Positions 5,692 to 57,638 of a stretch of 64,000 nucleotides of DNA are shown piece by piece. The DNA is from an uncultured Dehalococcoidales bacterium (GTDB lineage Bacteria > Chloroflexota > Dehalococcoidia > GIF9 > UBA5629): positions 112,254-176,253 of the forward strand of contig CAZFIM010000001.1 in NCBI GenBank assembly GCA_964519615.1, written 5' to 3'. The position numbers and the translations under genes are program-made. Numbering within the stretch: position 1 is the stretch's first letter; every line of letters starts with the position of its first letter. The notes under the pieces are model-generated. The model was not told the DNA's origin. It made no database searches and was given only the letters and a program-made list of their open reading frames with translations.

Positions 5692-5692
5692 G

Positions 5693-6292: not shown

Positions 6293-6344
6293 ATGGCAGA
6301 ATTCAAGTGGATGCCTGGCATCTCAGACAACGGCTGTTATGCCG

Positions 6345-9588: not shown

Positions 9589-9627
9589 CTCGAGGCGGGA
9601 CATATTTCAGCCGTAAAGGAGTCTGCA

Positions 9628-10533: not shown

Positions 10534-10614
10534 TTTTGATAATCATTATCGCTGAATTATAATGAATTGTATGAACGTATAGTCCCTCGCAAGATAGTAA
10601 GGAGGATTGAAAAA

Positions 10615-12936: not shown

Positions 12937-12976
12937 GACTAAGAGCAAGGGAGCGTCTTATTAGAGGAGGGTAACT

Positions 12977-13531
12977 ATGGCAACATCAACGCAGCCATTC
13001 CATCATGTCAATACAATGACGGGCACCAAGTATGCCCGGCTGATCGAGGATCCGGAGGAATATGCGCATTTGATTAAGCGCGCAAAACGGCCGCTGCTGA
13101 TTATTGGTGCACGCTGTCTGACCATGACTCTCGAAGGCAGGAGTTTGCTGGAATACGCAGTGGATATTGCCAAAGCGGGCAGCATACCTATATGTGCTAC
13201 TGCGCATACACAAAAACAGCTCATCGAGATGGGCGTAAAGCCTGACTGCAACTACGATATAATCGAGATATTGAATTTCCTAAAGGATGAAAACTGGCAG
13301 GGAGTGAAGAAAGAGGGGAATCATGACCTGGTGCTGTTTCTGGGGCTGAGGACCGATCTGGGTGAACAGGGGCTTTCCACCCTGAAACATTTCGCTCCGC
13401 ATTTGAAAACCATGACGCTGTGCAAGTACTATTATCCTCACGCCAGCTATTCACTGGCTAACTTCAGGAAGGATGCTAAGTGGAAGGAATTCCTTGACGC
13501 CATTATCGAAGATTTAAAGAAGGAGGCATAA
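12977..13531 (+). CDS. cdhB: ACDS epsilon subunit (CdhB)
   Basis: 184 aa, immediately 3' of cdhA; size and position match archaeal CdhB; GGAGG RBS. Confidence 0.65.
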   Translation: MATSTQPFHHVNTMTGTKYARLIEDPEEYAHLIKRAKRPLLIIGARCLTMTLEGRSLLEYAVDIAKAGSIPICATAHTQKQLIEMGVKPDCNYDIIEILNFLKDENWQGVKKEGNHDLVLFLGLRTDLGEQGLSTLKHFAPHLKTMTLCKYYYPHASYSLANFRKDAKWKEFLDAIIEDLKKEA

Positions 13532-13532
13532 G

Positions 13533-14759: not shown

Positions 14760-14779
14760 GATAAACCAGGAGGAACAGC

Positions 14780-16147
14780 ATGGCGCTAAAAGGTACTGAT
14801 ATAGTCAAAAAGCTTCCCGAGTCCGGCAAAAAGAACTGCCGCGAGTGCGGGTTCCCTACCTGCTTTGCTTTTGCCATGAAATTGGCCGGCGGCGGAGTAA
14901 AACTGGAGAAATGTCCGCACCTCACCGAGGAAGTGAAGGCGGAGCTTGAAGATGCTCTGGCACCTCCGATCAAGCTGGTAACTTTAGGCACAGGTGATAA
15001 CGTGCTTAAAATCGGCAACGAAGAGGTAATCTACAGACACGAGAAGACCTTTGTGCATTCACCCGGTGTGGCAGTGCTGCTATCGGATACCGAGCCGGAA
15101 GAGAAGGTGGATAAGAAAATCAAGAAACTTCAGGACCTGCGTTATCAGTGGGTAGGAGTGGAGTTGAAAGCTGACCTTCTTGCTCTGAACTGCCAGTCAG
15201 GCGATAAGGCAAAATTCGCAGCACTGGCAAATAAAGTTCACGCAAGCAACGGTTTTGCGGTGATCCTTATCAGTGAGGATGTCGAAGCACTGGTTGCAGC
15301 CGGTAAAATCTATGCTGACCGCAGGCCGCTGCTGTACCCCGTAACGGAACAAAATATCGAACGAATAATTACTGAATTCAAAGATTCCCCTCTGCCTGTA
15401 TGCGTACGCAGCGACAATGTAGAGGGGATAGTCCCTCTCACAACCAAATTGAAGGAAGCGGGATTTGAGGAAATAGTGCTTGATCCCGGCTCCCGCAAAT
15501 TGCAGGATGCGGTACGGGACCAGATGCTGATACGCCGGGCATCGTTAAAGCAGAATTTCAGGCCGCTGGGCTATCCTACGATCGGTTTTCCCTGTTTTAT
15601 GGCCGAGGATTCCATGCACGAACTGCTCTATGCGGCTATGTTCATGATTAAGTATCCGGGTGTTATCGTGCTCTCCGATATCGCTGAAAATACGCTGCTG
15701 CCGCTGCTGGTACAGCGGTTGAATATTTATACTGACCCGCGTATACCGATGTCAGTAGAGGAGAAGCTGTACGACATCAACAATCCTGATGCAGATTCGC
15801 CGGTTCTGGTTACCAGCAACTGGGCGCTTACCTATTTCATTGTTGCCTCAGAGATAGAAGGCAGTAAAGTGCCCACATGGCTGGTTGTAAAAGAATCGGA
15901 AGGGCTGGGTGTTCTGACCGGATGGGCAGCCGGAAAGTTTACGGCTGATTCCATTGCCCCGCTGGTAAAAAAACTGGGAGTTGAGAATAAAGTTAATCAC
16001 AGGAAACTGGTTATCCCGGGAAAGGTTGCCAGGATTAAAGGCGAGCTTGAAGAAGAGCTGCCCGGATGGGAGATTATCGTAGGTCCGCGGGAAGCGGCGG
16101 AAATTCCCGGCTACCTGCCCGATCTGGTAAAACAGTGGAAGAATTAG
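14780..16147 (+). CDS. acsC: Corrinoid iron-sulfur protein large subunit (AcsC / CdhE gamma)
   Basis: 455 aa; N-terminal [4Fe-4S] motif CRECGFPTCFAFAMK, TIM barrel, C-terminal B12-binding domain. Confidence 0.85.
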   Translation: MALKGTDIVKKLPESGKKNCRECGFPTCFAFAMKLAGGGVKLEKCPHLTEEVKAELEDALAPPIKLVTLGTGDNVLKIGNEEVIYRHEKTFVHSPGVAVLLSDTEPEEKVDKKIKKLQDLRYQWVGVELKADLLALNCQSGDKAKFAALANKVHASNGFAVILISEDVEALVAAGKIYADRRPLLYPVTEQNIERIITEFKDSPLPVCVRSDNVEGIVPLTTKLKEAGFEEIVLDPGSRKLQDAVRDQMLIRRASLKQNFRPLGYPTIGFPCFMAEDSMHELLYAAMFMIKYPGVIVLSDIAENTLLPLLVQRLNIYTDPRIPMSVEEKLYDINNPDADSPVLVTSNWALTYFIVASEIEGSKVPTWLVVKESEGLGVLTGWAAGKFTADSIAPLVKKLGVENKVNHRKLVIPGKVARIKGELEEELPGWEIIVGPREAAEIPGYLPDLVKQWKN

Positions 16148-16638
16148 CGCAGACATTCGAAGACATTTTTGTACCCGAAAGGAAAGACCGCCGCCGGCTG
16201 GTAAGTATTCTGCAAGAAGTCCAGCGCAAGTACGGTTATATATCTAAAGAAGCGATGCTGCAGACAGCAGCTTTTCTGGGGATTACCCCCGGTGCTGTTT
16301 ACGGCGTCGCTACTTTTTATAACCAGTTCCGCTTTATTCCTCCCGGTAAAAACGCAGTCAAGGTATGCATGGGGACCGCATGTCATCTGGCGGGAGGTAA
16401 ACTTGTCCTTGAAGCGATATCGCGCGAGCTGGACCTGGATGTCGGAGCTGTGAGCGAGGATAGAGAGTTCAGCCTTGAAAGAGTAGCCTGTATCGGCTGC
16501 TGTGCGCTTGCGCCCGTCATTCAAATAAACGAGACGGTCTATTCCCGTATGACATCACCGAAAGTAGAAGAGGTTCTGGTATCCGTCAAACCGGCTGTTG
16601 ACGAGAGGGACAGCGCCAAGGACAAGGGGGAAGGGTGA
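16135..16638 (+). CDS. NuoE/HoxE-like thioredoxin-fold [2Fe-2S] flavoprotein-complex subunit
   Basis: CMGTACHLAGG...CIGCCALAPV cluster motif. The track ORF starts at 16066 and would overlap acsC by 82 nt; the in-frame GTG at 16135 gives a NuoE-like N-terminus (VEELAQTFEDIF...) and a 13-nt overlap. Confidence 0.7.
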   Translation: MEELAQTFEDIFVPERKDRRRLVSILQEVQRKYGYISKEAMLQTAAFLGITPGAVYGVATFYNQFRFIPPGKNAVKVCMGTACHLAGGKLVLEAISRELDLDVGAVSEDREFSLERVACIGCCALAPVIQINETVYSRMTSPKVEEVLVSVKPAVDERDSAKDKGEG

Positions 16639-16645
16639 AAAGAGC

Positions 16646-18568
16646 ATGACGATAGCATCGATGCAGCAAAAGGCTAGGGCTGAGTGGGACAAGCTATACC
16701 GCGGGGATATCCCGCATATTCTTATCGGTACTGCCACATGCGGCAGGGCAGCGGGCGCTCTTGCCGTTGTCGATGCTTTTAATAAAGAGCTTGCCCGCAG
16801 GCAGGCAAAGGCCCATGTTTCAGAGGTCGGGTGTATCGGCTTATGCTCGCTCGAGCCGCTGGTGACTATCATTAAACCTGATTCGTTTACCGTCTGTTAT
16901 CACAATATTAGCCCGTCCGATGTGCCTGCTCTGGTCGAGGGATATATAGAGGGAGATGATCCCTGTTTAGACCTGGCTGTCGGTACGGTGGAGGGAGGTG
17001 GAGGAGAGGCGGTTTATATTCCAGAACTGGAGCGGTTCGAGCATGAACACAGGGTGCTATTACGTAACTGCGGCTACAACAATCCCCGTGAGATCGACCA
17101 CTATCTTGCCTGCGGCGGATATAACGGGCTGGCCCGCGCATTATCTATGAGCCGGGAGGATATCCTGAATGAGATAGAGAGGTCCGGATTGCGGGGCCGC
17201 GGCGGTGCCGGATTTCCCACCGGAACAAAGTGGAGAATTTGCCGCCAGACCGGCGGCACAGCCAGGTATGTGATTTGTAATGCGGACGAGGGCGACCCCG
17301 GCGCATTTATGGACAGGGTGGTGCTTGAGAGCGATCCGCAGCAACTGCTGGAGGGCATGGTGATAGCCGGGTACGCCGTGGATGCCCGCCAAGGCTATAT
17401 ATATATACGTTCCGAATACCCACTGGCGGTAGAGATACTGCGCTGTGCGCTCACAAAGGCCCGTGAAAAGAAATTGCTTGGCAAGGATATAATGGGCTCC
17501 GGATTTACCTTTGATATCGAGATAATAGAGGGCGCAGGAGCTTTTGTCTGCGGTGAAGAGACCGCGCTCATAGCATCTCTTGAGGGTAAACGCGGGATGC
17601 CGCAGCCCCGCCCCCCTTTTCCTGCCGTTTCCGGTCTTTGGGGCGAGCCGACAGCCATCGATAATGTAAAGACTTTTGTGTATGTACCGTTAATACTGGA
17701 GCGTGGCGCTGACTGGTTTGCGGGTATCGGCACCGCCGGCAGCAAGGGCACTGCTGTCTTTGCGCTTGCCGGAAGCACGGTCAATACCGGGCTTGCGGAG
17801 GTCGCAATGGGGACCACACTCCATGAGCTTATTTATGATATCGGCGGAGGCATTAAAAAAGAGAGAAAGTTAAAAGGAGTTCAGATAGGCGGTCCATCGG
17901 GCGGATGCCTTCCGCAAAGTATGATGCAGACGCCCGTAGACTTCGATTCATTGAAGAAGGCCGGGGCCATTATGGGTTCAGGCGGCATAATTACCATGGA
18001 CGAAGGGAACTGCATGGTCGACACCGCCAAATTCATGATAGATTTCAATCAGAAGGAATCATGCGGCAAATGTACTCTCTGCCGTATCGGCACAACACAT
18101 ATGCTCAATATACTCGAAAGGATTACTGCCGGTCAGGGAAGGATAGAGGATATAGACCTGCTGGTTGCATTGGGGGAGGATATCAAGCTCGGCTCTTTGT
18201 GCGGGCTGGGCAGAACCGCTCCTAACCCCGTGCTCACCACCATCCGCTATTTCAGAGATGAATACGAGGCGCATATACTTGAAAAGCGCTGTCCCGCATT
18301 GGTATGTAAAGAGCTGATAGCCTACTATATTCTGCCGGAGAAATGCCAGAAGGGCTGCGATCACTGCGTCCTCTCCTGTCCGGTAGAGGCCATCAGTACC
18401 GATAGCAGCGGCATCAAAATAATCGATCAAAGCAAATGCAGCAAATGCGGCAATTGTGAGGCCGTCTGCCCGCCGGAGTATGATGCGGTTATAAGGATGT
18501 CGCCGGTGGAACTGGTGCCTGTAACCGGGCCTACCGTTGACGTAGAAGCAAAGGAAGCTAAGGAGTAG
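16646..18568 (+). CDS. NuoF/HoxF/HydB-like NAD(H)- and FMN-binding Fe-S flavoprotein with C-terminal 2x[4Fe-4S] ferredoxin domain
   Basis: GGAGFPTG FMN/NADH motifs, ESCGKCTLCR [4Fe-4S], C-terminal CDHCVLSCP / CSKCGNCEAVCP, N-terminal thioredoxin-like domain. The ATG at 16646 has a GGGGGAAGGG RBS; the track start 16598 overlaps the preceding gene. Confidence 0.8.
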   Translation: MTIASMQQKARAEWDKLYRGDIPHILIGTATCGRAAGALAVVDAFNKELARRQAKAHVSEVGCIGLCSLEPLVTIIKPDSFTVCYHNISPSDVPALVEGYIEGDDPCLDLAVGTVEGGGGEAVYIPELERFEHEHRVLLRNCGYNNPREIDHYLACGGYNGLARALSMSREDILNEIERSGLRGRGGAGFPTGTKWRICRQTGGTARYVICNADEGDPGAFMDRVVLESDPQQLLEGMVIAGYAVDARQGYIYIRSEYPLAVEILRCALTKAREKKLLGKDIMGSGFTFDIEIIEGAGAFVCGEETALIASLEGKRGMPQPRPPFPAVSGLWGEPTAIDNVKTFVYVPLILERGADWFAGIGTAGSKGTAVFALAGSTVNTGLAEVAMGTTLHELIYDIGGGIKKERKLKGVQIGGPSGGCLPQSMMQTPVDFDSLKKAGAIMGSGGIITMDEGNCMVDTAKFMIDFNQKESCGKCTLCRIGTTHMLNILERITAGQGRIEDIDLLVALGEDIKLGSLCGLGRTAPNPVLTTIRYFRDEYEAHILEKRCPALVCKELIAYYILPEKCQKGCDHCVLSCPVEAISTDSSGIKIIDQSKCSKCGNCEAVCPPEYDAVIRMSPVELVPVTGPTVDVEAKEAKE

Positions 18569-18571
18569 AAA

Positions 18572-19327
18572 ATGACAACGACAATTGTAGTAGCCGGCAA
18601 GGGGGGAGTTGGCAAAACTGCCATATCCGCACTGCTGATAGATATACTCTCTAAAAAAGGCATAGTTCTGGCTATTGATGCAGACCCCAGCACTAACTTA
18701 AGCGATTCCCTCGGCATGGAGATCACCGGTACGGTGGGCAAGGCACGCGAAGAGCTTACCGATGATATACAGAAAGGAGTGCTGTCTCCCACCGTAACCA
18801 AACAGGATATCCTGGAGATGAAAATCAGGGAATCTCTGGTGGAAGGAGCCAGAGTAGACCTTCTGCCCATGGGGCGGCCGGAGGGACCGGGCTGCTACTG
18901 CGCTGCCAACCATATGCTGCGCCTTTCCATGGAACGACTGGCTAAAAACTATGATTATCTGGTAGTGGACTCGGAGGCGGGGATGGAACATATTAGCCGT
19001 CAGACGACTCAGGATGTGGATATATTATTGATAGTATCAGACCCCACTATGAGGGGTATTACCGCCGCCTCAAGGATGAAAGACCTCATCAAAGATATGA
19101 GAACCCGTGTGGGCAAGATTTACCTTGCCGTTAATAGGGTCAGCAACGGTCTTCCTCCTGAGATTAAGCAGGCTATAGAGAAGTACAGCCTCAATCTTAT
19201 CGGTACACTTGCTGAGGACCCCAAATTGACCGAACTGGATGTGAAAGGAAAACCGATCAATGAAATGCCTAAGGGATCACCGCTGCGTGCAGGGGTGGAG
19301 GACCTGGTTAAAAAATTCGGCCTGTGA
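18572..19327 (+). CDS. cooC: CooC/AcsF-type Ni-insertion ATPase (CODH/ACS maturation)
   Basis: 251 aa; deviant Walker A GKGGVGKT, MinD/ParA-like fold; last gene of the operon. Confidence 0.8.
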   Translation: MTTTIVVAGKGGVGKTAISALLIDILSKKGIVLAIDADPSTNLSDSLGMEITGTVGKAREELTDDIQKGVLSPTVTKQDILEMKIRESLVEGARVDLLPMGRPEGPGCYCAANHMLRLSMERLAKNYDYLVVDSEAGMEHISRQTTQDVDILLIVSDPTMRGITAASRMKDLIKDMRTRVGKIYLAVNRVSNGLPPEIKQAIEKYSLNLIGTLAEDPKLTELDVKGKPINEMPKGSPLRAGVEDLVKKFGL

Positions 19328-30734: not shown

Positions 30735-32396
30735 CTAGCGGTATGATGAGCTCGCCCAGGCTACACGGATGCCCAGTACCACCGCTGCGATAAAGAGGAG
30801 CAGCAGAACAGCGGAAAGCACGGCAATATAGATAGGGACGAGTATCACTTCAAAAGAGGCTGCTTCAGACCAGGGGCTCTCTTTTCCCATCGAATCGATT
30901 ACTTTAATTCTCCACTGGTACTTCCCCGGCGGCAGAGCATCGGCCTGCGAGAGAGTATATGAAGATATACTCTCGGTTTCTTTTTCCAGAGCTATCCGGT
31001 CAAACGATGTGCCTCTGGCGATTTGAAGGACATAGCGTTCCTCCCCGGATTCCCTATCGAGTGACCAATCGAAGTCAACCCCTGTCAAACCCAGCGGCCT
31101 TTTCCCGAACAGGTATTTTATTCCATCGATATAGACACGCCCAATGGAGTAAAAAACAGCAAACCTCTGGTCCTGTACCGGGGCAAGGGGGGTGGGTGAT
31201 GATGTTGCGGCAAATTTCACCGTGTTTAAGGACGCCTGTGCCGTGTTGCCTTTGCTGTCACTGACCGAGATCATATGCTCGAGGCTTGTGGTCTGGGGAA
31301 CGATAAAGGAAGTTCTGAAGCTGCCGAGATCATCGCTCCTTAGCGGAGGCGTAATCTCGGTCTGATCGAAAGTGAATGTGAGGCGGTCTTTGGCGGTAAA
31401 GCCGGCCCCTTTTATAGTGACGCGTTCATCTATGGCAGCGGTGTCCGGTTCCACGGTTAGAGACGGAAGTACCTCGAAGTATGATTTGGGGACTTTGCCT
31501 TTAAGCGTATAAAGTTTGCCGAAGATACTGATAGCATGTTTGCCGTAAGAGCTGGGAGGGACCTCGATTTCCTGTACTATGCTGCCTCCGGTATCTGCGG
31601 TGAGCCCGGACATTATCACTTCGTCATCCCAGCTTATAGATATCCCCACTTCACTGGTACTGAAGCCGTGACCCCACAGGGTCGTCTTTGAACCGACCTG
31701 CCCCGCAACCGGCTCTATTTTGCTCCAGGGGGTTACCAGAAAAACGACCTCATCCACCTCTCCGGCATAGGTTGTACTCCCCTGCGCTCCAAACAAATGC
31801 TCTCCACGGGATATATTGGGAAGAATATAGGAGATGCTCCATGTCCCGAAAGCATCCGCAGAGGTCAAGGTGCTGGATACTACAGTACCATCTACAGTGA
31901 TACTGATATTCGTTTCATATTTATCGAATCCATTTCCAGTGACCGTAAGCTGTGTCTGCGGTTCACCCATCGGCGGAAAGACCTTGATTGACGGAAGTAC
32001 CTCGAAAGAAACGGAAGCGGTGCTTTCAGACCAGTTGCTGTCGTCAGAGATAAAAATGGTATGTTCGCCTCGAGCGGCATGCGGTATCTCAATTGTATAG
32101 AGTATGGTGCCTTGAGCTGAAACGGGGACATCTTCAGCTATGATTGCCTCATCCCAGTAGACAGCAGCCAGACTGCCCGAAAAATTTTCTCCTCTAAGCT
32201 CTATGTTGGACCCTACAAGTCCTGATTGCGCCGATAACGTCAGATTTGCCCCCGCATAGGCAGGAGCCGGGAAAACAGCCGCAGCGACAATAACGATACA
32301 GGTGCATATCAGCAGGGACAGCAGGGCAGCATGGCATGCGTTTTCTTTTATTGTTTTATTAGCCGGTCTCTTCTGGTTACGGTCTCTGCCGGGCAC
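30735..32396 (-). CDS. Membrane-anchored surface protein with tandem Ig/TIG-like repeats and a C-terminal FN3-like domain (paralog of 55866..57638)
   Basis: 553 aa; signal peptide, repeated about 90-aa beta-rich modules, C-terminal GKYQWRIKVIDSMGKESPWS then a TM helix. Confidence 0.5.
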   Translation of the reverse strand: MPGRDRNQKRPANKTIKENACHAALLSLLICTCIVIVAAAVFPAPAYAGANLTLSAQSGLVGSNIELRGENFSGSLAAVYWDEAIIAEDVPVSAQGTILYTIEIPHAARGEHTIFISDDSNWSESTASVSFEVLPSIKVFPPMGEPQTQLTVTGNGFDKYETNISITVDGTVVSSTLTSADAFGTWSISYILPNISRGEHLFGAQGSTTYAGEVDEVVFLVTPWSKIEPVAGQVGSKTTLWGHGFSTSEVGISISWDDEVIMSGLTADTGGSIVQEIEVPPSSYGKHAISIFGKLYTLKGKVPKSYFEVLPSLTVEPDTAAIDERVTIKGAGFTAKDRLTFTFDQTEITPPLRSDDLGSFRTSFIVPQTTSLEHMISVSDSKGNTAQASLNTVKFAATSSPTPLAPVQDQRFAVFYSIGRVYIDGIKYLFGKRPLGLTGVDFDWSLDRESGEERYVLQIARGTSFDRIALEKETESISSYTLSQADALPPGKYQWRIKVIDSMGKESPWSEAASFEVILVPIYIAVLSAVLLLLFIAAVVLGIRVAWASSSYR

Positions 32397-41135: not shown

Positions 41136-41519
41136 ATGGCTGCATGTGAGCAGTCTTGCTGCTCCCGTTGCGGGTGTTCCATCCCTGCAGGGGAAAGCTA
41201 TGATTTGAGTGGACAGGTGTTATGCGAGGAATGCTATCTGCTGGCAGCTCACCGCGTGCAGGCCTGCGACCCGCTGGCGGTGCGTTCGGCGCAGTCCGCC
41301 AGAAAGGCTTTCGGCATCAGCCCGCTGGAAGGCTTGACGGCGCAGCAAAGGGCGATCAGGGAGTATATAGCGGCTAAAGGTAGAGCTGCGGCTGGAGAAC
41401 TGGAAAGAGAGCTTGGTATTCCCCCCGCTGAGCTTCATAACGATCTGGCTGTCCTGCGCCACTGCGAACTGGTTAAGGGACAGAAAGAAGGCGGCACGGT
41501 CTATCTGGTGCTCTACTGA
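41136..41519 (+). CDS. Hypothetical small protein: N-terminal Cys-rich zinc ribbon plus C-terminal winged-helix-like domain
   Basis: 127 aa; CSRCGC...CEEC, then LTAQQRAIREYIAAKG...ELERELGIPPAELHNDLAVL. Confidence 0.3.
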   Translation: MAACEQSCCSRCGCSIPAGESYDLSGQVLCEECYLLAAHRVQACDPLAVRSAQSARKAFGISPLEGLTAQQRAIREYIAAKGRAAAGELERELGIPPAELHNDLAVLRHCELVKGQKEGGTVYLVLY

Positions 41520-41523
41520 GCCG

Positions 41524-42039
41524 CTACCTCTTCAAACTCTCCGCGATACCTTGCGCCCATTTTTCAATGGCGTCCCAATCGCGCCAGTCTCCCAGCGGCG
41601 CCTTGATGTTCTTGATGGCCGCCTTCTCCAGAAAATTGAATTTATCGAGGTTGATCATCCCGTGAAAGACGGCTATATCGCGCGGCTTGATTGCCTCGAT
41701 TACCGGCTCCAGCGCCGACGGATAGCGCCAACCCTGTACCAGTGCCTCAGGATCGCCCTGCCCTGTCGGGCCGCTGGAGAAGATCCACACAGGGACTGCT
41801 GACAGCGCTTCCCGGTTGGATTTAACGAAGGAAGCAGCATCTTTGCGCCACTGCCCGATATAGACGGCACTTCCCAGCACAACCGCCCTGTAACGCGCCG
41901 GGTCTTTTACCTCTTTTACAGGCATAACCTCGGCCTCAAGTCCCGCCTTAAGCAGGACATGTCCGATTCTCTGTGCTATCTCCGCTGTGGCCCCGTATTT
42001 GGTAGCATAGGTAACTAATACGGTATCGCTCATCAACAC
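41524..42039 (-). CDS. Flavodoxin-like domain protein (Flavodoxin_5 / HemG-like)
   Basis: 171 aa; N-terminal VLVTYATKYGATAEIAQ flavodoxin-like P-loop for FMN. Confidence 0.5.
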   Translation of the reverse strand: MLMSDTVLVTYATKYGATAEIAQRIGHVLLKAGLEAEVMPVKEVKDPARYRAVVLGSAVYIGQWRKDAASFVKSNREALSAVPVWIFSSGPTGQGDPEALVQGWRYPSALEPVIEAIKPRDIAVFHGMINLDKFNFLEKAAIKNIKAPLGDWRDWDAIEKWAQGIAESLKR

Positions 42040-43016: not shown

Positions 43017-44057
43017 ATGATAATGGACTATCTTCTTCACCTCATGCAGGGCGGCCTTACAGCACTGGTCGACTATTTATCACTGCATGTGCTCACGTGC
43101 CTTATTCCGGCCTTTTTTATCGCCGGAGCCATCTCTGCCTTTGTCTCACAGAACGCGATACTGAAATATTTCGGGCCTAAAGCCAAAAAGCTGGTTTCAT
43201 ACGGCGTTGCTTCTGTATCAGGTACGATTCTGGCTGTATGCTCCTGTACGATATTACCCTTATTCGGAGGCATCTATAAAAGGGGGGCGGGTCTGGGCCC
43301 GGCCATAGCCTTTTTATATTCCGGCCCTGCTATCAATGTGCTGGCGATCGTTTACTCGGCCCGCCTGCTTGGTTTTGATATAGGCGCTGGCCGTGCTATC
43401 GGCGCTATCATATTCTCAATTATTATCGGACTCATCATGGCGGCTATCTACAGGGAGGAAGAATCTCAGAAAGATGCAACTGCCTTTAATGCTTTACTTG
43501 ATGACTCTGACAGTAAACCCATCTGGCAGCAACTGCTCTTCTTCGCAGTTTTGGTGGGCATTCTGATCTTTGCCGCCTCAAAGCAGTGGATTGTCACTGG
43601 AGTGCTGCTGGCAGCGCTGGCTGTGATTCTGTGGCGGCTGTTTAGCCGCGGCGAAATCATCATCTGGCTGAAAGAGACGGTGAGATTCGTGCGCCTGATT
43701 GTGCCCTGGCTGCTGGCGGGTGTGTTTGCTGCAGGTATTATCACCACTGTCGTGCCGCAGGAAGCCGTAACCGCCTGGGTGGGCGGCAATGGGCTGCTTG
43801 CCAACTTCATTGCCTCATTTTTAGGGGCACTGATGTATTTTGCCACCCTTACAGAAGTTCCCATTATACGCGCTTTCATGGACCTGGGCATGGGAAAAGG
43901 ACCGACTATGGCATTGCTGCTGGCGGGACCTGCGCTCTCGCTGCCCAATATGCTGGTGATACGTAATATCATGGGCACGAAAAAGACGGTGACATATGTT
44001 GCCCTGGTGGTCATCATGGCAACCATCTCAGGTTATATCTTCGGGCTCATTACATAA
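43017..44057 (+). CDS. COG0701/ArsP-like permease
   Basis: 346 aa; TM protein with CSC motif in TM region (AVCSCTILPLFGG); typically paired with a small thioredoxin-like protein. Confidence 0.6.
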   Translation: MIMDYLLHLMQGGLTALVDYLSLHVLTCLIPAFFIAGAISAFVSQNAILKYFGPKAKKLVSYGVASVSGTILAVCSCTILPLFGGIYKRGAGLGPAIAFLYSGPAINVLAIVYSARLLGFDIGAGRAIGAIIFSIIIGLIMAAIYREEESQKDATAFNALLDDSDSKPIWQQLLFFAVLVGILIFAASKQWIVTGVLLAALAVILWRLFSRGEIIIWLKETVRFVRLIVPWLLAGVFAAGIITTVVPQEAVTAWVGGNGLLANFIASFLGALMYFATLTEVPIIRAFMDLGMGKGPTMALLLAGPALSLPNMLVIRNIMGTKKTVTYVALVVIMATISGYIFGLIT

Positions 44058-44083
44058 AGAATACAACTAGGAGGAGGCAAAAT

Positions 44084-44338
44084 ATGAACATTAAAATTCT
44101 CGGTCCCGGTTGTGCGAAGTGCCACGCACTGGAAAAAGCAGTAAGCGAAATTATCAGTGAACTTAAGGTCGAAGCTCAGGTCGAATATGTGAAAGACATG
44201 GCGAAAATACTCGAGTATCCTATCCTCACCACGCCGGGGCTGGTTATCGACGGCAAAGTCATAACCTCCGGCAAGGTGCCGGGCAAGGCAGAGATGACAA
44301 AATACATAATGAACGCTCTGGCCGAACAGGAGAAATAG
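44084..44338 (+). CDS. Small thioredoxin-family protein (redox-active disulfide protein 2 type)
   Basis: 84 aa; MNIKILGPGCAKCHALE CxxC at N-terminus. Confidence 0.7.
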   Translation: MNIKILGPGCAKCHALEKAVSEIISELKVEAQVEYVKDMAKILEYPILTTPGLVIDGKVITSGKVPGKAEMTKYIMNALAEQEK

Positions 44339-44430
44339 AACAAAAAAATCAGGCAATGTTTAAAAGTATATGAGCAGGCGGGTGTTGTTCTCTGCTTGTT
44401 CCGAACGGGATACCTGATAAGGAGTAAAAC

Positions 44431-44967
44431 ATGATCAAAAATATATTATCTAAACTGGGCGTTTGTCTCGTGATGATAGTTATGCTTAGTGCGGTTGCTG
44501 CCTGCGATACGCCAACACCGGTACCGGCACAGCCCGATGAGCCGCAGTCTTCCGCACCGGCGGCAAGCGAAAAACCTGCTAGCAGCGAACCGCAGGTTAA
44601 GCCGGAAGCTCCCTCAGAGGATAATAATTATGTCGAGGTAGCATACTTTCATACCAAACGCCGCTGTGGGCCGTGTACATATATTGAGATAAGGACGCAA
44701 CATAACATAGAGACATATTTCCAGGATGAGCTTGCCAGCGGGAAGCTGGAATTCAACGTCTATGAGCTGGGATTGAAGGAGAATGAAGCCGTGGCCACAA
44801 AATATCAGGCTGTCGGCTCTCAACTCTTTATTAACACCATAGTAGACGGCAAGGACAATATACGGCATATGGAAGCTGTATGGGAAAAAGAATATCTGGA
44901 CGACCAGGAGAAATTCGACGCCCTTATCCAGGACCTGGTCAAAGAAGCGCTGGAGGCAGCAGGATAA
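44431..44967 (+). CDS. Extracytoplasmic thioredoxin-fold CxxC lipoprotein (paralog A)
   Basis: 178 aa; lipobox AVAAC, Pro/Ser-rich linker, VAYFHTKRRCGPCTYIE, ELASGKLEFNVYELG. Confidence 0.45.
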   Translation: MIKNILSKLGVCLVMIVMLSAVAACDTPTPVPAQPDEPQSSAPAASEKPASSEPQVKPEAPSEDNNYVEVAYFHTKRRCGPCTYIEIRTQHNIETYFQDELASGKLEFNVYELGLKENEAVATKYQAVGSQLFINTIVDGKDNIRHMEAVWEKEYLDDQEKFDALIQDLVKEALEAAG

Positions 44968-45674
44968 TGGATATCGGAAGCCTTGGCGGGGATTTCAATA
45001 TACCGATATTATCAGCCTTTTTACTGGGGCTGCTGACAGCGGTAAGCCCGTGTCCGCTGGCTACTAATATAGCAGCCATTGCCTTCATCAGCCGCAAGGT
45101 GTCGGAGCGCAAATTCGCCGTCATAACCGGCTCGCTTTATACGCTTGGGCGGATGTTTTCCTATTCCGTGATCGGTGTACTTATCATCGCTGCCGGCCTG
45201 GAAATACCCGGTATCTCGCTCTTCCTACAGGATGTGGGAGAGAAGGCATTGGGACCGCTGCTGATAGTCGTAGGACTGGTTATGCTCAATATAGAACGAC
45301 TCGGTTTTGGCAGGGGGGGAGGGCGATTATCTTCTCTTGGAGAGAAGGTAGCCAATTGGGGTACTGTGGGAGGCTTTCTGCTTGGCGTTATTTTTGCCCT
45401 GGCCTTCTGTCCTTACAGCGCAGTCCTTTATTTCGGAGTCTTGATACCGCTTGCGCTCAAGTCCGCCGGAGGTATTTCCTTCCCGGCGGTATATGCGCTG
45501 GGGACGGGGCTGCCCGTTCTAGTACTCGGCACATTGCTTTCCCTGGGCGTGAGTGGGGTTTCTTCATGGCTCAACGCTATATCCAGAGTTGAGCGGGTTG
45601 TCCGCATAATTGTCGCTATCGCATTCATCGGGATAGGCATCTACTATGTCTATCTATGGATTCAGCATGTATAA
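44967..45674 (+). CDS. ccdA: CcdA/DsbD-family transmembrane thiol-disulfide electron transporter
   Basis: Start at the ATG 44967 (MDIGSL...), overlapping the previous stop (TAATG). TM1 contains LLTAVSPCPL; six TM helices. Confidence 0.75.
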   Translation: MDIGSLGGDFNIPILSAFLLGLLTAVSPCPLATNIAAIAFISRKVSERKFAVITGSLYTLGRMFSYSVIGVLIIAAGLEIPGISLFLQDVGEKALGPLLIVVGLVMLNIERLGFGRGGGRLSSLGEKVANWGTVGGFLLGVIFALAFCPYSAVLYFGVLIPLALKSAGGISFPAVYALGTGLPVLVLGTLLSLGVSGVSSWLNAISRVERVVRIIVAIAFIGIGIYYVYLWIQHV

Positions 45675-45702
45675 CTTTAATGTAGCAGGATAGTTTGACG
45701 CT

Positions 45703-46197
45703 ATGGGAAAATTCAGCCGCTTAAAAAATTGGAGCTGTTTGCTCGTACTTCTTATGATTGCCGGCATGCTTTGCTCCTGTGAAAAAATCTTCAGCGATTA
45801 CTCGATATCGAATGCAGATCCGGCAGCACATGTCACCGGCCCGGCCGATCAGGTGGAGCTCGTCTATTTTCACCGTGAGCGGCGCTGTGAGGCATGTACC
45901 TATGCGGAGGAGCGGCTGTTATATCTGGTAAAGACATATTTTGCCGATGAACTTGCCAGCGGTAAACTTGTATTTCAGATTTACAATCTCGGCGATAAGA
46001 ATAGTCAGGCTCCTGCACAGAGATACAACGCTATCGGCTCTCAGCTTTTTATAAATGTCATTATTGATGGTGAGGACCATATCAGGTATGTGGAGGAAAT
46101 CTGGTACTGGGGATGTATAGATGACGAAAAAGTCTTCGATAAGGTGATTAAAAATATTATTACTAAAGGATTGTACGGTACCACGTTGCAGGAATAG
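45703..46197 (+). CDS. Extracytoplasmic thioredoxin-fold CxxC lipoprotein (paralog B)
   Basis: 164 aa; signal/lipobox GMLCSC, LVYFHRERRCEACTYAE, ELASGKLVFQIYNLG; clearly paralogous to 44431..44967. Confidence 0.45.
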   Translation: MGKFSRLKNWSCLLVLLMIAGMLCSCEKIFSDYSISNADPAAHVTGPADQVELVYFHRERRCEACTYAEERLLYLVKTYFADELASGKLVFQIYNLGDKNSQAPAQRYNAIGSQLFINVIIDGEDHIRYVEEIWYWGCIDDEKVFDKVIKNIITKGLYGTTLQE

Positions 46198-46236
46198 AGT
46201 TAGCAGCAAATATGAATTGCGGAAAGAAAGCGGAAT

Positions 46237-47316
46237 ATGAATACTATGGAGAAATCGATCAAAGGTAGCCTGCCGTTACTTGACCGTTTTCTCACCCTGT
46301 GGATTTTCCTGGCTATGGCCTTGGGGGTTGGGCTGGGCTATTTTATCCCGCAGGTTGCGGATGTTATCGGCTATTTCCAGGTTAATACCACCTCGATACC
46401 GATAGCTGTGGGATTGATCCTGATGATGTACCCGCCGCTGGCAAAGGTACGCTATGAGGAGATGGGCCGTGTCTTCCGTGACTGGCGTGTGCTGGGGCTT
46501 TCCCTGGTGCAGAACTACATTATCGGACCGCTGCTTATGTTCTTTGTTGCGATCCTGTTTCTGGGCTTTATCTGGCCGAATCCCGATTACATGGTAGGGC
46601 TCATCATGATCGGGCTTGCGCGCTGTATAGCTATGGTTATCATCTGGAATCAGCTGGCCAGGGGTGACAGCGAATACGCTGCGGGGCTGGTGGCGCTCAA
46701 CTCCGCCTTTCAGATCGTTTTCTATTCCGTCTATGCCTATATCTTCATCACTATTATGCCGGGCTGGTTCGGATTGGAGGGCTCGGTGGTCCATGTGGCT
46801 ATGGGCGAGATCGCCAAAAGCGTGCTTATATATCTGGGCATACCTTTCTTCGGAGGCATGCTGACTAGATTCATATTCCTCAAGATCAAGGGGCGTACAT
46901 GGTATGAGGAGCGTTTTATCCCGAAGATAAGCCCGCTTACGCTGGCGGCGCTGCTCTTCACTATTGTGGTAATGTTCTCGCTCAAGGGCGAGCTTATCGT
47001 GCAGATACCGCTGGATGTAGTCAAAATAGCGGTGCCTCTGCTGATCTATTTTGTCGTTATGTTCCTGCTCTCCTTTTATATGGGCAAAAGAATCGGCGCT
47101 GACTACTCTCGTACTGCCACCATCGCCTTCACCGCGGCGAGCAACAACTTCGAGCTGGCCATCGCCGTAGCCGTAGCCGTCTTCGGCATCGGCTCCGGGC
47201 AGGCTTTTGCCGCTGTTATCGGCCCGCTGGTGGAGGTGCCGTTATTGATAGGCCTTGTCAATGCTGCACTTTTCTTTCAGGAAAGATACTTTCATCATAA
47301 AGAAAAGGCAACATGA
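46237..47316 (+). CDS. acr3: Arsenite efflux transporter ACR3
   Basis: 359 aa; ACR3/BART family N-terminus ([20 protein letters not shown]), 10 TM. Confidence 0.85.
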
Positions 47317-47396
47317 TAAGATATATGCCAGGTTTAACCGTTGTATAATGGTGGTAAGCATAAAGCGCACGGTATATCTGAAATAGGACAATCTTC

Positions 47397-48383
47397 ATGA
47401 GTGCTAAGAAAAAAAAGTATAAAGCGAAAGAAGCAAAGAGCGCCAGGCGTTTATCCTCCCCACCCGCCGGAGGAGCCGGCATTGTTTCCGGACAGCGGCG
47501 GAAAACCCTCTCTTTACCCAAAAAGTTGAGTATAAGGATATTAATGGCTGCGGCGGTGGTTATAGTGTGCGCGGCAGTTATCTGGGCTATTATCTTTTTA
47601 GCCGGCAGAGGCGGCTCTTCCCCCGATACTTCCGGCGTGGTAGATGGCGGCAGTATCAAAATAAGCAATGTAGATATTTCGAAAATCACGGAAAAGACAA
47701 TAACAGTAACGTGGAAGACAAATGTCCCTTCCAGCAGCCAGGTAATAGCCACAGAACAGGAATCAGGATTGGTTATTGCCGGATGGCCCGATGATGAGCT
47801 GCTTAAGGACCATAAATATGAGGTAGCAGGGCTGGAGCCCGATACTGCCTACCAACTTACGATAAAGGCAGTTGATGTGGAGGGGAGCGGGGTGGAGCTC
47901 AAACTTCAGGAACAGGTCGCAACCATGCCCGTACGAACATCAACTGATCTGGTTCAGGGTATGAAGGCTCCTCAGTTCGCTTTAAAAACACTGGCAGGGA
48001 AAGATGTCTCGCTTGCTGATTCCGGCGGCAAACAAATAATTCTGGTCTTCTGGGAAATGAGCTGCGCTTCCTGTAAAGAGCAGCTGCCGCTTATTCAGGA
48101 GTTCTTTTCATTGATGGACAGCAACGAATATATACTTCTCACTGTGTGTGTGAAAGGACGTCAGGCGCTTGTTGAAAGCTATGCTGCAGGGAGCAAATTT
48201 ACGTTCCCCATTCTGCTAGATGAGGAGGGGGCCGTAGCGGAAAAATATACTATCGCCGTCTACCCGACAACTATACTCATCGATGGAGAAGGGATCATAA
48301 TAAGTGTAAGGGAGGCCTCGTTCGGCTCTGTGGATGAGATGACAGGCTTTGTGGCGTCCGACAGCAACGCCCGAAGTGAATGA
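47397..48383 (+). CDS. Membrane-anchored FN3-domain / TlpA-like thiol-disulfide oxidoreductase (redoxin)
   Basis: 328 aa; N-terminal TM, FN3-like (TITVTWKTN...YQLTIKAVD), redoxin with WEMSCASCKEQ CxxC. Confidence 0.65.
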   Translation: MSAKKKKYKAKEAKSARRLSSPPAGGAGIVSGQRRKTLSLPKKLSIRILMAAAVVIVCAAVIWAIIFLAGRGGSSPDTSGVVDGGSIKISNVDISKITEKTITVTWKTNVPSSSQVIATEQESGLVIAGWPDDELLKDHKYEVAGLEPDTAYQLTIKAVDVEGSGVELKLQEQVATMPVRTSTDLVQGMKAPQFALKTLAGKDVSLADSGGKQIILVFWEMSCASCKEQLPLIQEFFSLMDSNEYILLTVCVKGRQALVESYAAGSKFTFPILLDEEGAVAEKYTIAVYPTTILIDGEGIIISVREASFGSVDEMTGFVASDSNARSE

Positions 48384-55865: not shown

Positions 55866-57638
55866 TTATAGACTGCTTTTATTTCTTGTAAATGCTTTGC
55901 GGATCAGGCGCGGCACAATCGATATGACAATGAAGAATGCGATAAGGCACAAAATGATAATAACCGCGGTTTTTATGCTCATCACCGCTGTTTTAACCAG
56001 TGCCGGTTTGGTCCAGGCGCTTTCATTGCCGGCTCTATCCGTGGCCTTTACCCGCCAGTAATACGAGCCGGGAGGCAGCGATTCAGCCTCGCTCAGCGTA
56101 TACATGGACTCCTCCAGATTATCGATATCCACCAGCAGTTCAGCGAAGTTGGACTGCTCGCTCACCTGTATGGCATATCGGACGCCGCTGGGATCGGACA
56201 CATCGGTCCAGTCGAAGTGAACCTTGGTATCTCCGATATAGCCCTCTCTGCCCCCGTCTTTAGGAGAGGCAATGCGGGGAACCTCCGGAGGCGTGGTTTC
56301 AATGGAAAATGTTGCCGATGCCTCTACGTTTGCCGTATCGATGGCGCTGACAACGATATCTCCGCTGATATTAACAGGTGTCTCGAAACTGGTACTGAAT
56401 TTGCCGGTATTATCGCTGATAATACCCAGTGTGAGCGGCTCACCGCCGAAAGCAAGAGAGATGTCCGCTTTTTTGCTGAACCCGCTGCCGGTGACGGTGA
56501 CGACATCTCCGACATTGCCCACCCTGGGATTAAGAGTGAGTAGCGCTTCTATGGTGAAAGTGCTTTCCAGCACATCATCCGCTACTGTGGTATTGCCGTA
56601 GGCACTGACGGTATGATCGCCGTTGACGCTGTCCGGAGCGTTTATGGTGGTAGTCCAGTAACCCTGGTCGTTGGCGCTGAGATTACTCTCTATAACCTTG
56701 CCGTCGTAGGTGACCTTTATACCGCTCTCATTATTGGCAAAGCCGCTGCCGCTTATGACGATTTCATCGCTGATATAGCCGCCTTCCGGTTCAACGATGA
56801 CGCGGGGGGATACGGTGAATGTCTTGTCTTCCACCTCGCTGTCGGAGGTTGTATCTCCTTCCGCGTCGATGGTATGCATCCCCTTGATTGAGCTCGGTAC
56901 CGTAAAGGATGTGCTCCATGTGCCGTTTACATTGGCGATAAGCCCTGTCCTGACCTTGTCATCGTCGTAGTATAGGGAAATGCCTGTTTCCGCTGATTCA
57001 AAACCGGTGCCGGTGACGGTAACTACCGTCCCTACACCGCCGGTAGAGGGGTTGACCGTTATTTTGGGGCTGACTGTGAAGTTCTCATCAGCTACATCAT
57101 CGTCTTCAGTGGTGCTGCCGTAGGCATCTACCGTATGGGTCCCCGTAGCGGCATCCGGGACGGTGAACGTTGTTGTCCATGTCCCGCTGCTGTTGGCGGT
57201 AATGCCGCTTTTTACCGCTTTGCCGTTAAAGGTAACAGCGATCTTATTCTCAGCTGAGCCGAATCCGGTACCGGTGATATCCACTGCGGTTCCCACGGTG
57301 CCCGAACTAGTCTCAATATCTATTACGGGCACAATAATGAATGTGCCGCTGAATACCTGAGTGCTGTTGGTAAGCACTTTGACAGAATGAGAGCCACCGG
57401 AGGAGTCGTTGACAGCAAAGGTCACTGATCCGGAAGAGGAGACTGTCCCTGTCTTGTAATCGACGTCATCCCATCTGATCGTATATGTATTTCCAACCGT
57501 AAGGCCGGTAATGGTAATATCCGTACCTACCGCTCCCTGCGATGGAGACATGGCCACCGCTGCATGTACGGGTATCGTAATAATTGTACTTAAGAAAAGC
57601 ACTATACAGAGGGCCGAAGCAGCGATTTTTGCACGCAT
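55866..57638 (-). CDS. Membrane-anchored surface protein with about 6 tandem Ig/TIG-like repeats and a C-terminal FN3-like domain (paralog of 30735..32396)
   Basis: 590 aa; signal peptide, repeated VTVTGTGF...TFTVSP modules, GSYYWRVKATDRAGNESAW, C-terminal TM anchor. Confidence 0.5.
   Translation of the reverse strand: MRAKIAASALCIVLFLSTIITIPVHAAVAMSPSQGAVGTDITITGLTVGNTYTIRWDDVDYKTGTVSSSGSVTFAVNDSSGGSHSVKVLTNSTQVFSGTFIIVPVIDIETSSGTVGTAVDITGTGFGSAENKIAVTFNGKAVKSGITANSSGTWTTTFTVPDAATGTHTVDAYGSTTEDDDVADENFTVSPKITVNPSTGGVGTVVTVTGTGFESAETGISLYYDDDKVRTGLIANVNGTWSTSFTVPSSIKGMHTIDAEGDTTSDSEVEDKTFTVSPRVIVEPEGGYISDEIVISGSGFANNESGIKVTYDGKVIESNLSANDQGYWTTTINAPDSVNGDHTVSAYGNTTVADDVLESTFTIEALLTLNPRVGNVGDVVTVTGSGFSKKADISLAFGGEPLTLGIISDNTGKFSTSFETPVNISGDIVVSAIDTANVEASATFSIETTPPEVPRIASPKDGGREGYIGDTKVHFDWTDVSDPSGVRYAIQVSEQSNFAELLVDIDNLEESMYTLSEAESLPPGSYYWRVKATDRAGNESAWTKPALVKTAVMSIKTAVIIILCLIAFFIVISIVPRLIRKAFTRNKSSL

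Follow-up and report, generated by a model that had tools for sequence, protein, structure and literature searches.

Genes for thioredoxin-like proteins that lie among arsenic transporter genes raise the question of what the redox proteins do. Such a set is found at positions 43017-48383 of a 64,000-nucleotide stretch of DNA (the window) from the genome of an uncultured, anaerobic, Dehalococcoidia-like member of the Chloroflexi. A first-pass annotation regarded these genes as a departure from the canonical ars operon, in which electrons supplied through a CcdA protein may serve reductive chemistry on the envelope side.

An arsP-arsEFG-acr3 operon composed of known modules

All seven genes lie on the + strand, and every motif quoted in the first-pass annotation is in place. 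The first gene (43017..44057, 346 aa) encodes an ArsP-like permease with a membrane C-S-C (VCSCT motif), which matches Pfam PF03773 (ArsP_1) with an E-value of 2.3e-78 and scores under the equivalog cut-offs of the SaoE and SO_0444 models. It is followed by arsE (44084..44338, 84 aa), encoding a mini-thioredoxin with a GPGCAKC motif, arsF1 (44431..44967, 178 aa), encoding a CxxC lipoprotein with the motif YFHTKRRCGPC, arsG (44967..45674, 235 aa counted from ATG), encoding a DsbD/CcdA-type polytopic membrane protein, and arsF2 (45703..46197, 164 aa), encoding a second ArsF-family lipoprotein with the motif YFHRERRCEAC. The last two genes are acr3 (46237..47316, 359 aa), for an arsenite efflux transporter, and a gene (47397..48383, 328 aa) for a membrane-anchored protein that joins an FN3 domain to a TlpA/ResA-like redoxin (WEMSCASC).

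The curated NCBIfam cut-offs are 62 bits for TIGR00412 (MTH895/ArsE family), 60 for NF040494 (ArsF), 200 for the NF040495 equivalog (ArsG), and 282.8 for the TIGR00832 equivalog (ACR3). Against these, ArsE scored 97.7 bits, ArsF1 and ArsF2 83.9 and 73.1 bits, respectively, ArsG 276.3 bits, and ACR3 443.5 bits; ACR3 also matches Pfam SBF. ArsE belongs in addition to Pfam Thioredoxin_3 and matches the solved structure 1ILO (MTH895) with an E-value of 1.8e-14. The analysis bears out the anatomy first described, with a mini-thioredoxin in the cytoplasm, a DsbD/CcdA-type membrane protein, two extracytoplasmic CxxC lipoproteins of thioredoxin fold, a redoxin anchored in the membrane, and two permeases of the arsenic type.

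Gaps between the genes range from -1 to 92 nt, and the start of arsG overlaps the stop of arsF1 (TAATG), as had been noted. Promoter- and terminator-like sites inside the operon showed no excess over the shuffled expectation. In a relative (locus L003), the same order of ArsP, ArsE, the two ArsF on either side of ArsG, ACR3, and FN3-redoxin is found together with matching flanking genes, at 59-86% identity. Because both the order and the flanking genes recur in L003, the arrangement is not a product of chance. The region is very probably an arsP-arsEFG-acr3 operon, which consists of three known modules, that is, an ArsP-type permease, ArsE/ArsF/ArsG with two ArsF paralogues, and ACR3, with the FN3-redoxin gene appended. 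Since it is built on the already named ArsE/ArsF/ArsG module, the operon is an ordinary example of a known arsenic-resistance type and not a new system. The view that the system was unrecognized must be abandoned, as its proteins fall into curated families and the NCBI pipeline already names equivalent ars clusters in the cultured Bacteroidota Fulvitalea and Prevotella.

The first-pass annotation also stated that arsC and arsR are missing. A phmmer search of the 64 kb window, for which the queries were a single LMWP-type ArsC and a single ArsM, found neither arsC nor arsM. For arsR the statement holds in part; no canonical arsR adjoins the operon, but a gene 1.5 kb upstream (41136..41519, + strand) encodes a protein with a Cys-rich N-terminus and an ArsR/SmtB-like winged helix. 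Its match to HTH_metalloreg is weak and below the cut-off (31.8 bits vs 55), and BLASTP shows no similarity between it and the canonical ArsR found in locus L001. A 90%-identity cluster mate is labelled an ArsR family regulator by JGI, and the gene is kept upstream of the operon in L003. The protein is a possible regulator, and its membership in the operon is uncertain.

Conservation of the arsEFG core

More than 100 loci show the association of arsE, arsF, and arsG. The core that is conserved comprises arsE and an arsF placed just upstream of arsG: of 55 ArsG-anchored metagenome loci, 54 have arsF in this position, and 25/26 of such loci contain arsE. In 34 Chloroflexi genome loci and the other loci retrieved, 38 ArsG copies have enough sequence upstream to be judged, and 37 of these show the arsF-arsG pattern; the core pattern was also seen in Planctomycetota-like contigs. 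The first-pass annotation asked whether lipoprotein-CcdA-lipoprotein is a conserved cassette and whether it always neighbors acr3. Neither is supported by the wider comparison; a second arsF directly downstream of arsG is a minority variant (2/55 ArsG-anchored loci), and acr3 is common near arsEFG, yet not obligatory.

These data also bear on the idea that a CcdA/ResA module for cytochrome c maturation came to lie beside acr3 by chance. JGI labels close homologues as 'cytochrome c biogenesis protein CcdA', and the final gene of the operon is ResA/TlpA-like. However, in Chloroflexi, Planctomycetota-like, and Bacteroidota loci alike, ArsE, ArsF, ArsG, and ArsP are encoded co-linearly with ArsR and often with acr3, ArsC, or ArsM, and ArsG passes an ArsG-specific equivalog model. 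Genes for System II, that is, ResB/ResC (CcsBA), c-type cytochromes, and CxxCH-rich ORFs, were absent from the window, and the neighborhoods were ars throughout. Because of the synteny, we consider chance adjacency effectively refuted and extremely improbable.

Topology and cysteines of ArsE, ArsF, and ArsG

ArsE begins MNIKILGPGCAKC and therefore has no signal peptide; with CAKC at residues 10-13 leaving no space for one, it is predicted to be cytoplasmic. The CxxC is retained in 90 of the 91 ArsE homologues of the loci.

The two ArsF proteins are thioredoxin-fold CxxC proteins with predicted lipoprotein signal sequences, and as paralogues they share 40% identity. Their N-termini carry a hydrophobic stretch that ends in a lipobox-like Cys (VAAC in ArsF1 and LCSC in ArsF2), as read from sequence patterns. 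In ArsF1, a Pro/Ser-rich linker leads to the thioredoxin-fold CxxC domain at residues 62-178, while ArsF2 represents a 'downstream' subtype with an additional W-x-C cysteine; these positional subtypes are maintained in L001 and L003. The same architecture is a property of the family. A hydrophobic or lipobox segment is present at the N-terminus of nearly every full-length ArsF representative, and the ArsF proteins of cultured Bacteroidota have classical signal peptides. The CxxC lies at the N-terminus of helix 1 of the thioredoxin fold, and its cysteines are conserved in 145/145 (Cys1) and 140/145 (Cys2) representatives. ArsF forms a distinct thioredoxin-fold family with the signature FH-x(2)-R-C-x-x-C / GSQLFI, for which Pfam has no model. 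The two checks named in the first-pass annotation, on fold and signal peptide of the lipoproteins and on gene order in relatives, therefore both came out in favor of its reading of the anatomy.

ArsG is a DsbD/CcdA homologue that has kept both membrane cysteines. It matches Pfam DsbD_2 (74.2 bits, cut-off 24.9) and DsbD_TM (36.5 bits, cut-off 27.1), and by hhalign the membrane domain of E. coli DsbD (probability 94%, E-value 1.4e-7). C29 (in SPC) and C148 (in AFCPYS) are both invariant (39/39 and 21/21 homologues). C29 aligns with the TM1 Cys of DsbD, and C148 falls within the ICSPC segment beside a gap, where the exact register is uncertain. The AF2 model of ArsG has a pLDDT of 43. In locus L076 (3183-4388), a single polypeptide combines a signal anchor, ArsF (96.7 bits), and ArsG (274 bits), and an ArsF-ArsG fusion is present in L086 as well.

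The FN3-redoxin protein matches Pfam fn3 (33.8 bits), AhpC-TSA (73 bits), and Redoxin (50 bits) and fails the family-specific models for ResA (77.2 bits vs 170) and TlpA (31.2 bits vs 230). Its N-terminus is basic and continues into one hydrophobic segment. The gene occupies the equivalent place in L003, and 7 of 39 related ArsG neighborhoods contain a similar one. Other extracytoplasmic proteins of the CxxC reductant type, such as TlpA-like proteins and a lipoprotein thioredoxin, are recurrent in arsEFG operons.

[quoted passage not shown] The redox genes would then be a thioredoxin system that serves cytoplasmic arsenate reduction by ArsC. ArsC was indeed encoded in 7/8 of those operons, and several relatives encode an LMWP-type ArsC within the operon itself. 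The reading is nevertheless very improbable here; ArsC is absent from the operon and from that of the closest relative, L003, and ArsF is extracytoplasmic whereas ArsC is cytoplasmic, a mismatch that the 2010 authors acknowledged.

Electron relay, nitroreductase, or arsenical hand-off

The database names imply another function. To our knowledge, the sole experimental study of ArsEFG is that of Chen, Zhang and Rosen in 2019, reportedly in Environ Sci Technol 53:6182, which is said to have ascribed nitroreduction of trivalent roxarsone and nitarsone to ArsEF and efflux of the amino products to ArsG; the name ArsEFG likewise reportedly dates from 2019. Taken literally, ArsE and ArsF would act together as a nitroreductase on trivalent nitroaromatic arsenicals of the roxarsone and nitarsone type and yield amino derivatives, with ArsG an independent secondary efflux permease for the products, ArsP an exporter of methylarsenite or aromatic As(III), and ACR3 an exporter of arsenite. 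All three proteins exceed the cut-offs of NCBIfam models built on the 2019 study, the operon context is wholly one of arsenical export, and both genuine transporters and electron carriers belong to the DsbD/LysE superfamily. PMC9144182 also refers to ArsG as an efflux transporter and states that ArsE/ArsF confer organoarsenical resistance. We nonetheless find this literal reading rather doubtful. ArsE is predicted to be cytoplasmic and ArsF, family-wide, to be secreted or lipid-anchored, and therefore no soluble ArsE-ArsF complex is expected. Both proteins are plain CxxC thioredoxin folds without a flavin or metal cofactor domain, ArsG has kept precisely the pair of catalytic-type cysteines that DsbD has, and ArsF and ArsG are fused in some organisms. 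Moreover, uncultured anaerobic Chloroflexi carry the module in abundance, and there synthetic nitroaromatic arsenicals are unlikely to be its main substrate.

The sequences instead suggest a membrane-spanning cysteine relay, and the predicted topology seems easier to reconcile with a CcdA-type relay than with a soluble nitroreductase made of ArsE and ArsF beside an ArsG pump. We tentatively propose that ArsE, ArsG, and ArsF may act together as a transmembrane dithiol relay of the CcdA type. In the cytoplasm, ArsE would reduce the Cys29-Cys148 pair of ArsG, and ArsG would in turn reduce the CxxC motifs of ArsF1 and ArsF2, both tethered to the surface, with the redoxin protein as a probable further acceptor. 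Reduced ArsF and redoxin may then act outside the cytoplasm on arsenicals or arsenic-modified thiols, and ArsP and ACR3 would be the exporters of trivalent arsenic, both organic and inorganic. If the reported nitro-group reduction of aromatic arsenicals by ArsEF is true, ArsF would carry it out at the outer face with electrons delivered via ArsG. An envelope-side reductive function is a reasonable hypothesis that departs from the assignment of nitroreduction and efflux. What arsenic resistance would gain from reduction outside the cell is not evident.

The relay architecture is equally compatible with transfer of arsenic-dithiolate ligands instead of electrons. Trivalent arsenicals, R-As(III), bind vicinal dithiols, and their complexes could be handed from ArsE to the Cys pair of ArsG and on to ArsF, or in reverse, with ArsG as a true thiol-exchange exporter, by analogy with MerP-MerT-MerA for mercury and with ArsD, a thioredoxin-fold arsenic chaperone that gives As(III) to ArsA. 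The three-compartment layout of CxxC, Cys pair, and CxxC is the same, ArsR-type regulators head arsEFG operons in relatives, and Cys-based substrate sites are typical of the neighboring ArsP too (CxC in 56/59 ArsP-like ORFs of related loci). Such a hand-off would also bring the architecture into line with the ArsG-dependent efflux that has been reported. It is nevertheless unlikely; ArsG is homologous to an electron carrier, and no homology to MerT is expected, and the recurrent TlpA/ResA-like and thioredoxin genes encode classical electron acceptors, not metal chaperones.

Comparison with known systems

The operon resembles the ArsEFG module (TIGR00412/NF040494/NF040495) in that all three families score above their cut-offs and the genes are adjacent and co-directional in an arsenic operon. 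It differs in its two arsF genes flanking arsG, the appended FN3-redoxin gene, the lack of an adjacent canonical arsR and of arsC, and its host, an uncultured anaerobic member of the Chloroflexi. With known ArsP proteins, which export methylarsenite or aromatic arsenicals, and their small thioredoxin-like partner, it shares the ArsP_1 family, the membrane C-x-C, and a TIGR00412 neighbor, but its permease is no equivalog of the tested curated ArsP_1 subfamily models (SaoE and SO_0444).

The proposed CcdA-type relay is comparable to the CcdA/DsbD relays, which lead from thioredoxin through CcdA to ResA/CcmG/TlpA. ArsG has the DsbD-type membrane domain with both Cys kept, and the operon also encodes a thioredoxin-like partner on the cytoplasmic side and CxxC partners of thioredoxin fold on the extracytoplasmic side, a likeness in the presence of genes only. 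The natural ArsF-ArsG fusion mirrors the domain fusion of DsbD. In contrast to those relays, the context of arsEFG is exclusively arsenic. The Mer system (MerP-MerT-MerA) may be likened in layout only; it too deals with a toxic, thiophilic element by means of Cys pairs on the outside, within the membrane, and in the cytoplasm. Finally, whereas the ArsF family was unrecognized in the eight instances of Castillo and Saier (2010; PMC2963123), the present comparison extends to more than 100 loci and identifies ArsF as the extracytoplasmic partner.

Organization of the arsenic operon

All seven co-directional ORFs that the first-pass annotation had placed at 43017-48383 were found in the ORF list with the motifs it quoted, and their families were assigned with Pfam and NCBIfam models and the cut-offs of these models. 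The first gene (43017-44057, +) encodes an ArsP_1 permease (Pfam, E 2e-78) with a VCSCT motif and is followed by a gene for an 84-aa thioredoxin-like protein of the MTH895/ArsE family (44084-44338, +; 97.7 bits, cut-off 62; GPGCAKC), which matches the solved structure 1ILO in a sequence search. Two further products were assigned to the family named "nitrophenyl compound nitroreductase subunit ArsF", ArsF1 (44431-44967, +; 83.9 bits, cut-off 60; YFHTKRRCGPC) and ArsF2 (45703-46197, +; 73.1 bits, cut-off 60; YFHRERRCEAC); neither has a Pfam match, and at 40% identity they are paralogous, as had been proposed. Between them lies arsG (44967-45674, +), the product of which falls into the "aromatic aminobenzylarsenical efflux permease ArsG family" (276 bits, cut-off 200) and contains the Pfam domains DsbD_2 and DsbD_TM. 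Its start codon overlaps the arsF1 stop codon as TAATG, in agreement with the overlap described for the gene then called CcdA. The operon ends with ACR3 (46237-47316, +; 443 bits, cut-off 283) and a protein with fn3 and AhpC-TSA/Redoxin domains and a WEMSCASC motif (47397-48383, +), which scores under the ResA and TlpA equivalog cut-offs of NCBIfam. By these assignments, the core described as mini-thioredoxin, lipoprotein, CcdA and lipoprotein is the arsE-arsF-arsG module, already named, in which arsF has been duplicated; it is located between arsP and acr3. Intergenic distances range from -1 to 92 nt; a scan for promoter- and terminator-like matches inside the operon gave no excess over the shuffled expectation, and an inverted-repeat search 5' of arsP gave nothing above it and no clear operator.

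Genomic surroundings and a candidate regulator

No canonical arsR adjoins the operon. The sole candidate is a 127-aa protein at 41136-41519 (+), 1.5 kb upstream, whose N-terminus is rich in Cys (CEQSCCSRCGC...CEEC) and whose ArsR/SmtB-like winged helix is only weakly recognizable, at 31.8 bits against an NCBIfam cut-off of 55; BLASTP found no similarity between it and the canonical ArsR of the related locus L001. The gene adjoins a Flavodoxin_5 gene on the opposite strand (41524-42039, -), and the pair is kept upstream of the operon in L003, a second related locus. The protein may be an arsenic-sensing regulator that takes the place of the canonical ArsR common to most relatives.

Flanking genes tested by NCBIfam (a methyltransferase, an MFS transporter, a GalT-like protein and others) revealed no link to arsenic, and phmmer found no match to LMWP-type ArsC or to ArsM within the 64-kb window. 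That the redox genes of the operon support a cytoplasmic ArsC is a poorly supported and very improbable explanation. The window probably lies near the origin, since translations read by eye in the region 3033-8270 / 8713-19327 include dnaA, obg, nadD and gyrB. The same reading by eye revealed a Wood-Ljungdahl/acetyl-CoA synthase cluster in this region, with a corrinoid methyltransferase, CODH/ACS subunits, a corrinoid FeS protein and a CooC-like ATPase. Secreted repeat-rich proteins with a C- or N-terminal membrane anchor are encoded at 30735-32396 (-; 553 aa) and 55866-57638 (-; 590 aa).

Conservation of the gene order

The closest relatives of ArsG, at 70-86% identity, come from Dehalococcoidia and Chloroflexi MAGs. 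In L003, where ArsF1 is 59% and ArsG 86% identical to the proteins of the window, the order arsP-arsE-arsF1-arsG-arsF2-acr3-FN3-redoxin is the same and continues with an ArsM-like methyltransferase; the upstream genes are also shared. Gene order is kept between the two. The idea that a cytochrome c maturation module came to lie here by chance was rejected on synteny, and we give it almost no weight. The more distant Chloroflexi locus L001 (44% identical) reads arsR-arsP-arsE-arsF-arsG-arsF-thioredoxin-arsF-DGC-ArsC-MtrA/FeS-acr3-PKD-ArsM. Its MtrA-like (tetrahydromethanopterin S-methyltransferase subunit A) and FeS domain protein (L001:12380-13213) immediately precedes acr3, as do its equivalents in many ars operons of Chloroflexi (loci L005, L007, L011, L012, L016, L049, L050 and L055), often with ArsM nearby.

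We scanned genomes with ArsF patterns as the anchor, which biases the result toward arsF-arsG adjacency and toward Chloroflexi, and all 34 genome loci found in this way belonged to Chloroflexota. Together with other fetched loci, arsF lay immediately upstream of arsG in 37 of the 38 copies with upstream room, arsE was near 35 of 39 ArsG copies and acr3 near 28 of 39, while two or more same-strand arsF genes accompanied 20 of 39 and a TlpA-like gene 7 of 39. Because of this bias, an ArsG-anchored scan of metagenomes was added (80 loci, 44-72% identity). Of the 55 loci that reach far enough upstream, 54 have arsF directly before arsG and only 2 have arsF directly after it; arsE was present in 25 of the 26 loci that extend 1.5 kb or more to either side.

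Beyond Chloroflexi, the order in Planctomycetota-like contigs is arsR-SBF-arsR-arsP-arsE-DGC-arsF-arsF(tandem)-arsG; in two further contigs it is arsR-arsE-GCV_H-DGC(n)-arsF-arsF-arsG, and acr3 is absent within 7 kb. The ArsR-headed clusters at L040:2192-8288 and L041:2767-8323 combine arsE, two arsF and arsG with OsmC, several DGC-domain proteins and a lipoyl carrier (glycine-cleavage H protein); they have neither acr3 nor arsP within 7 kb and present a different context for the E/F/G core. In cultured Bacteroidota, the NCBI pipeline annotates arsR, thioredoxin, ArsF, ArsG and permease on pFA1 of Fulvitalea axinellae, and wHTH, ArsF, ArsG, thioredoxin, permease, ArsC and ACR3 on a Prevotella nigrescens plasmid.

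From these gene orders, the invariant unit is arsE with arsF-arsG, multiple arsF copies being common; arsG straddled by two arsF genes is a minority layout, and acr3 is a frequent but not obligatory neighbor. The lipoprotein-CcdA-lipoprotein arrangement was thus rejected as a conserved cassette on the count of 2 in 55, and acr3 is not always alongside. Nor does the novelty claimed in the first-pass annotation hold, as this type of ars operon is already known, named by NCBIfam models and annotated in cultured strains; by its assignments, the operon is one more arsP-arsEFG-acr3, a type common in Dehalococcoidia.

Secreted ArsF and the membrane protein ArsG

When 1.84 billion representatives were searched with a profile, 3,323 ArsF clusters matched at E ≤ 0.001, of which 1,234 reached E ≤ 1e-10; at 50% identity, ArsF alone numbers no fewer than 3,300 clusters. 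Among the top 150 representatives, the first Cys of the CxxC motif was present in 145/145 and the second in 140/145, and the F-H ahead of it was also conserved. The thioredoxin fold and export signal ascribed to the two lipoproteins stood up, with a hydrophobic N-terminal signal, lipobox or membrane anchor in nearly all full-length members and classical signal peptides in those of cultured Bacteroidota. A sequence search of ArsF against solved structures gave noise only. The domain fusions of ArsF are all of an extracytoplasmic type: tandem ArsF-ArsF (P0173, P0182), a PKD-like/beta-rich domain followed by ArsF, and ArsF followed by a second, C-terminal CxxC domain of glutaredoxin-like type (P0221, P0224, P0256). 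Weak precomputed Pfam matches to Thioredoxin_4 and Thioredoxin_2 occur in the tandem forms only. Two positional subtypes can be told apart: the copy upstream of arsG has no third cysteine (WEKEY), and in the downstream copy the last strand is followed by a conserved W-x-C (IWYWGC). The distinction holds for 44431-44967 versus 45703-46197 and for their counterparts in L001 and L003 (44-59% identical). Selenocysteine forms (UxxC/CxxU) of ArsF and ArsE were absent from 125 loci, which therefore add no further evidence for redox catalysis.

ArsG has exactly two cysteines, C29 (SPC) and C148 (AFCPYS), invariant in 39/39 and 21/21 homologues, Bacteroidota and Planctomycetota-like sequences included. 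Its profile matches the membrane domain of E. coli DsbD (probability 94%, E 1.4e-7); in the alignment, C29 falls on the DsbD TM1 cysteine and C148 within the ICSPC segment, adjoining a gap. A sequence search against solved structures gave no match for ArsG, and an AF2 model, for which the 32 input sequences shared 70% identity or more, had a mean pLDDT of 42.7.

In two metagenome loci, ArsF and ArsG form one polypeptide of signal anchor, ArsF and ArsG (L076:3183-4388 and L086:279-1610), the former a 401-aa ORF to which the NCBIfam models give 274 bits (ArsG) and 96.7 bits (ArsF). As the two contigs are closely related, they probably represent one fusion event. Genes for ArsE, ACR3 and a lipoprotein thioredoxin are likewise present on L076. 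Between acr3 and arsE it encodes a protein of 127 aa (L076:2028-2411) that bears a GPMACSCSG motif, has no NCBIfam match and may be an ArsD-like arsenic chaperone.

A possible transmembrane thiol relay

ArsE has no signal peptide and keeps its CxxC in 90 of 91 homologues. By sequence, redox-type Cys pairs are arranged in three compartments, with ArsE in the cytoplasm, ArsG in the membrane, and ArsF1, ArsF2 and the FN3-redoxin protein outside; on fold, signal and family evidence, the earlier structural reading of these proteins was right.

The database names taken literally describe a soluble ArsE-ArsF nitroreductase and an independent ArsG pump. This is the sole reading with experimental backing, reportedly obtained by Chen, Zhang and Rosen in 2019, yet by sequence ArsE and ArsF would lie on opposite sides of the membrane and no flavin or metal cofactor domain is present, and we regard it as rather unlikely. 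PMC9144182, referring to Chen, Zhang and Rosen (2019), lists ArsG as a transporter for the efflux of organoarsenicals and ArsE/ArsF as determinants of resistance.

The secretion signals across the ArsF family, the DsbD-type cysteines of ArsG, the near-obligatory linkage of arsE/arsF with arsG and the ArsF-ArsG fusions instead point to a membrane-spanning thiol relay. In such a relay, either electrons or an arsenic-dithiolate would cross the membrane by way of ArsE inside, ArsG within it and ArsF outside, ArsF being present as one to three paralogues and at times fused to ArsG. A Mer-like hand-off of the dithiolate would suit the same architecture and reconcile it with the reported efflux; by analogy it is conceivable, but unlikely. 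Our working model, tentative but the most likely one, is a CcdA-type electron relay, because the homologous family works in this way, the partners have canonical folds and locations, and arsEFG operons repeatedly include classical clients of CcdA, namely secreted thioredoxins and proteins similar to TlpA/ResA. The idea of an envelope relay itself has a precedent from 2010.

What the operon offers is a sharper and testable doubt on how ArsEFG works, the point of interest being the topology and fusions of ArsF and ArsG set against functional names now in propagation. If the relay is true, the annotations "nitroreductase subunit" and "efflux permease", which are spreading to thousands of genomes, need revision, models of arsenic resistance gain an extracytoplasmic redox or chaperone step, and anaerobes possess an extracytoplasmic arm of arsenic defence that is missing from current ars models. 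With similar tentativeness, ArsEFG could be, instead of a nitroreductase and a pump, a transmembrane cysteine relay of the DsbD-like type that is dedicated to arsenic and very widespread. The fusion of ArsF with ArsG parallels DsbD itself, in which periplasmic thiol domains are joined to the membrane domain.
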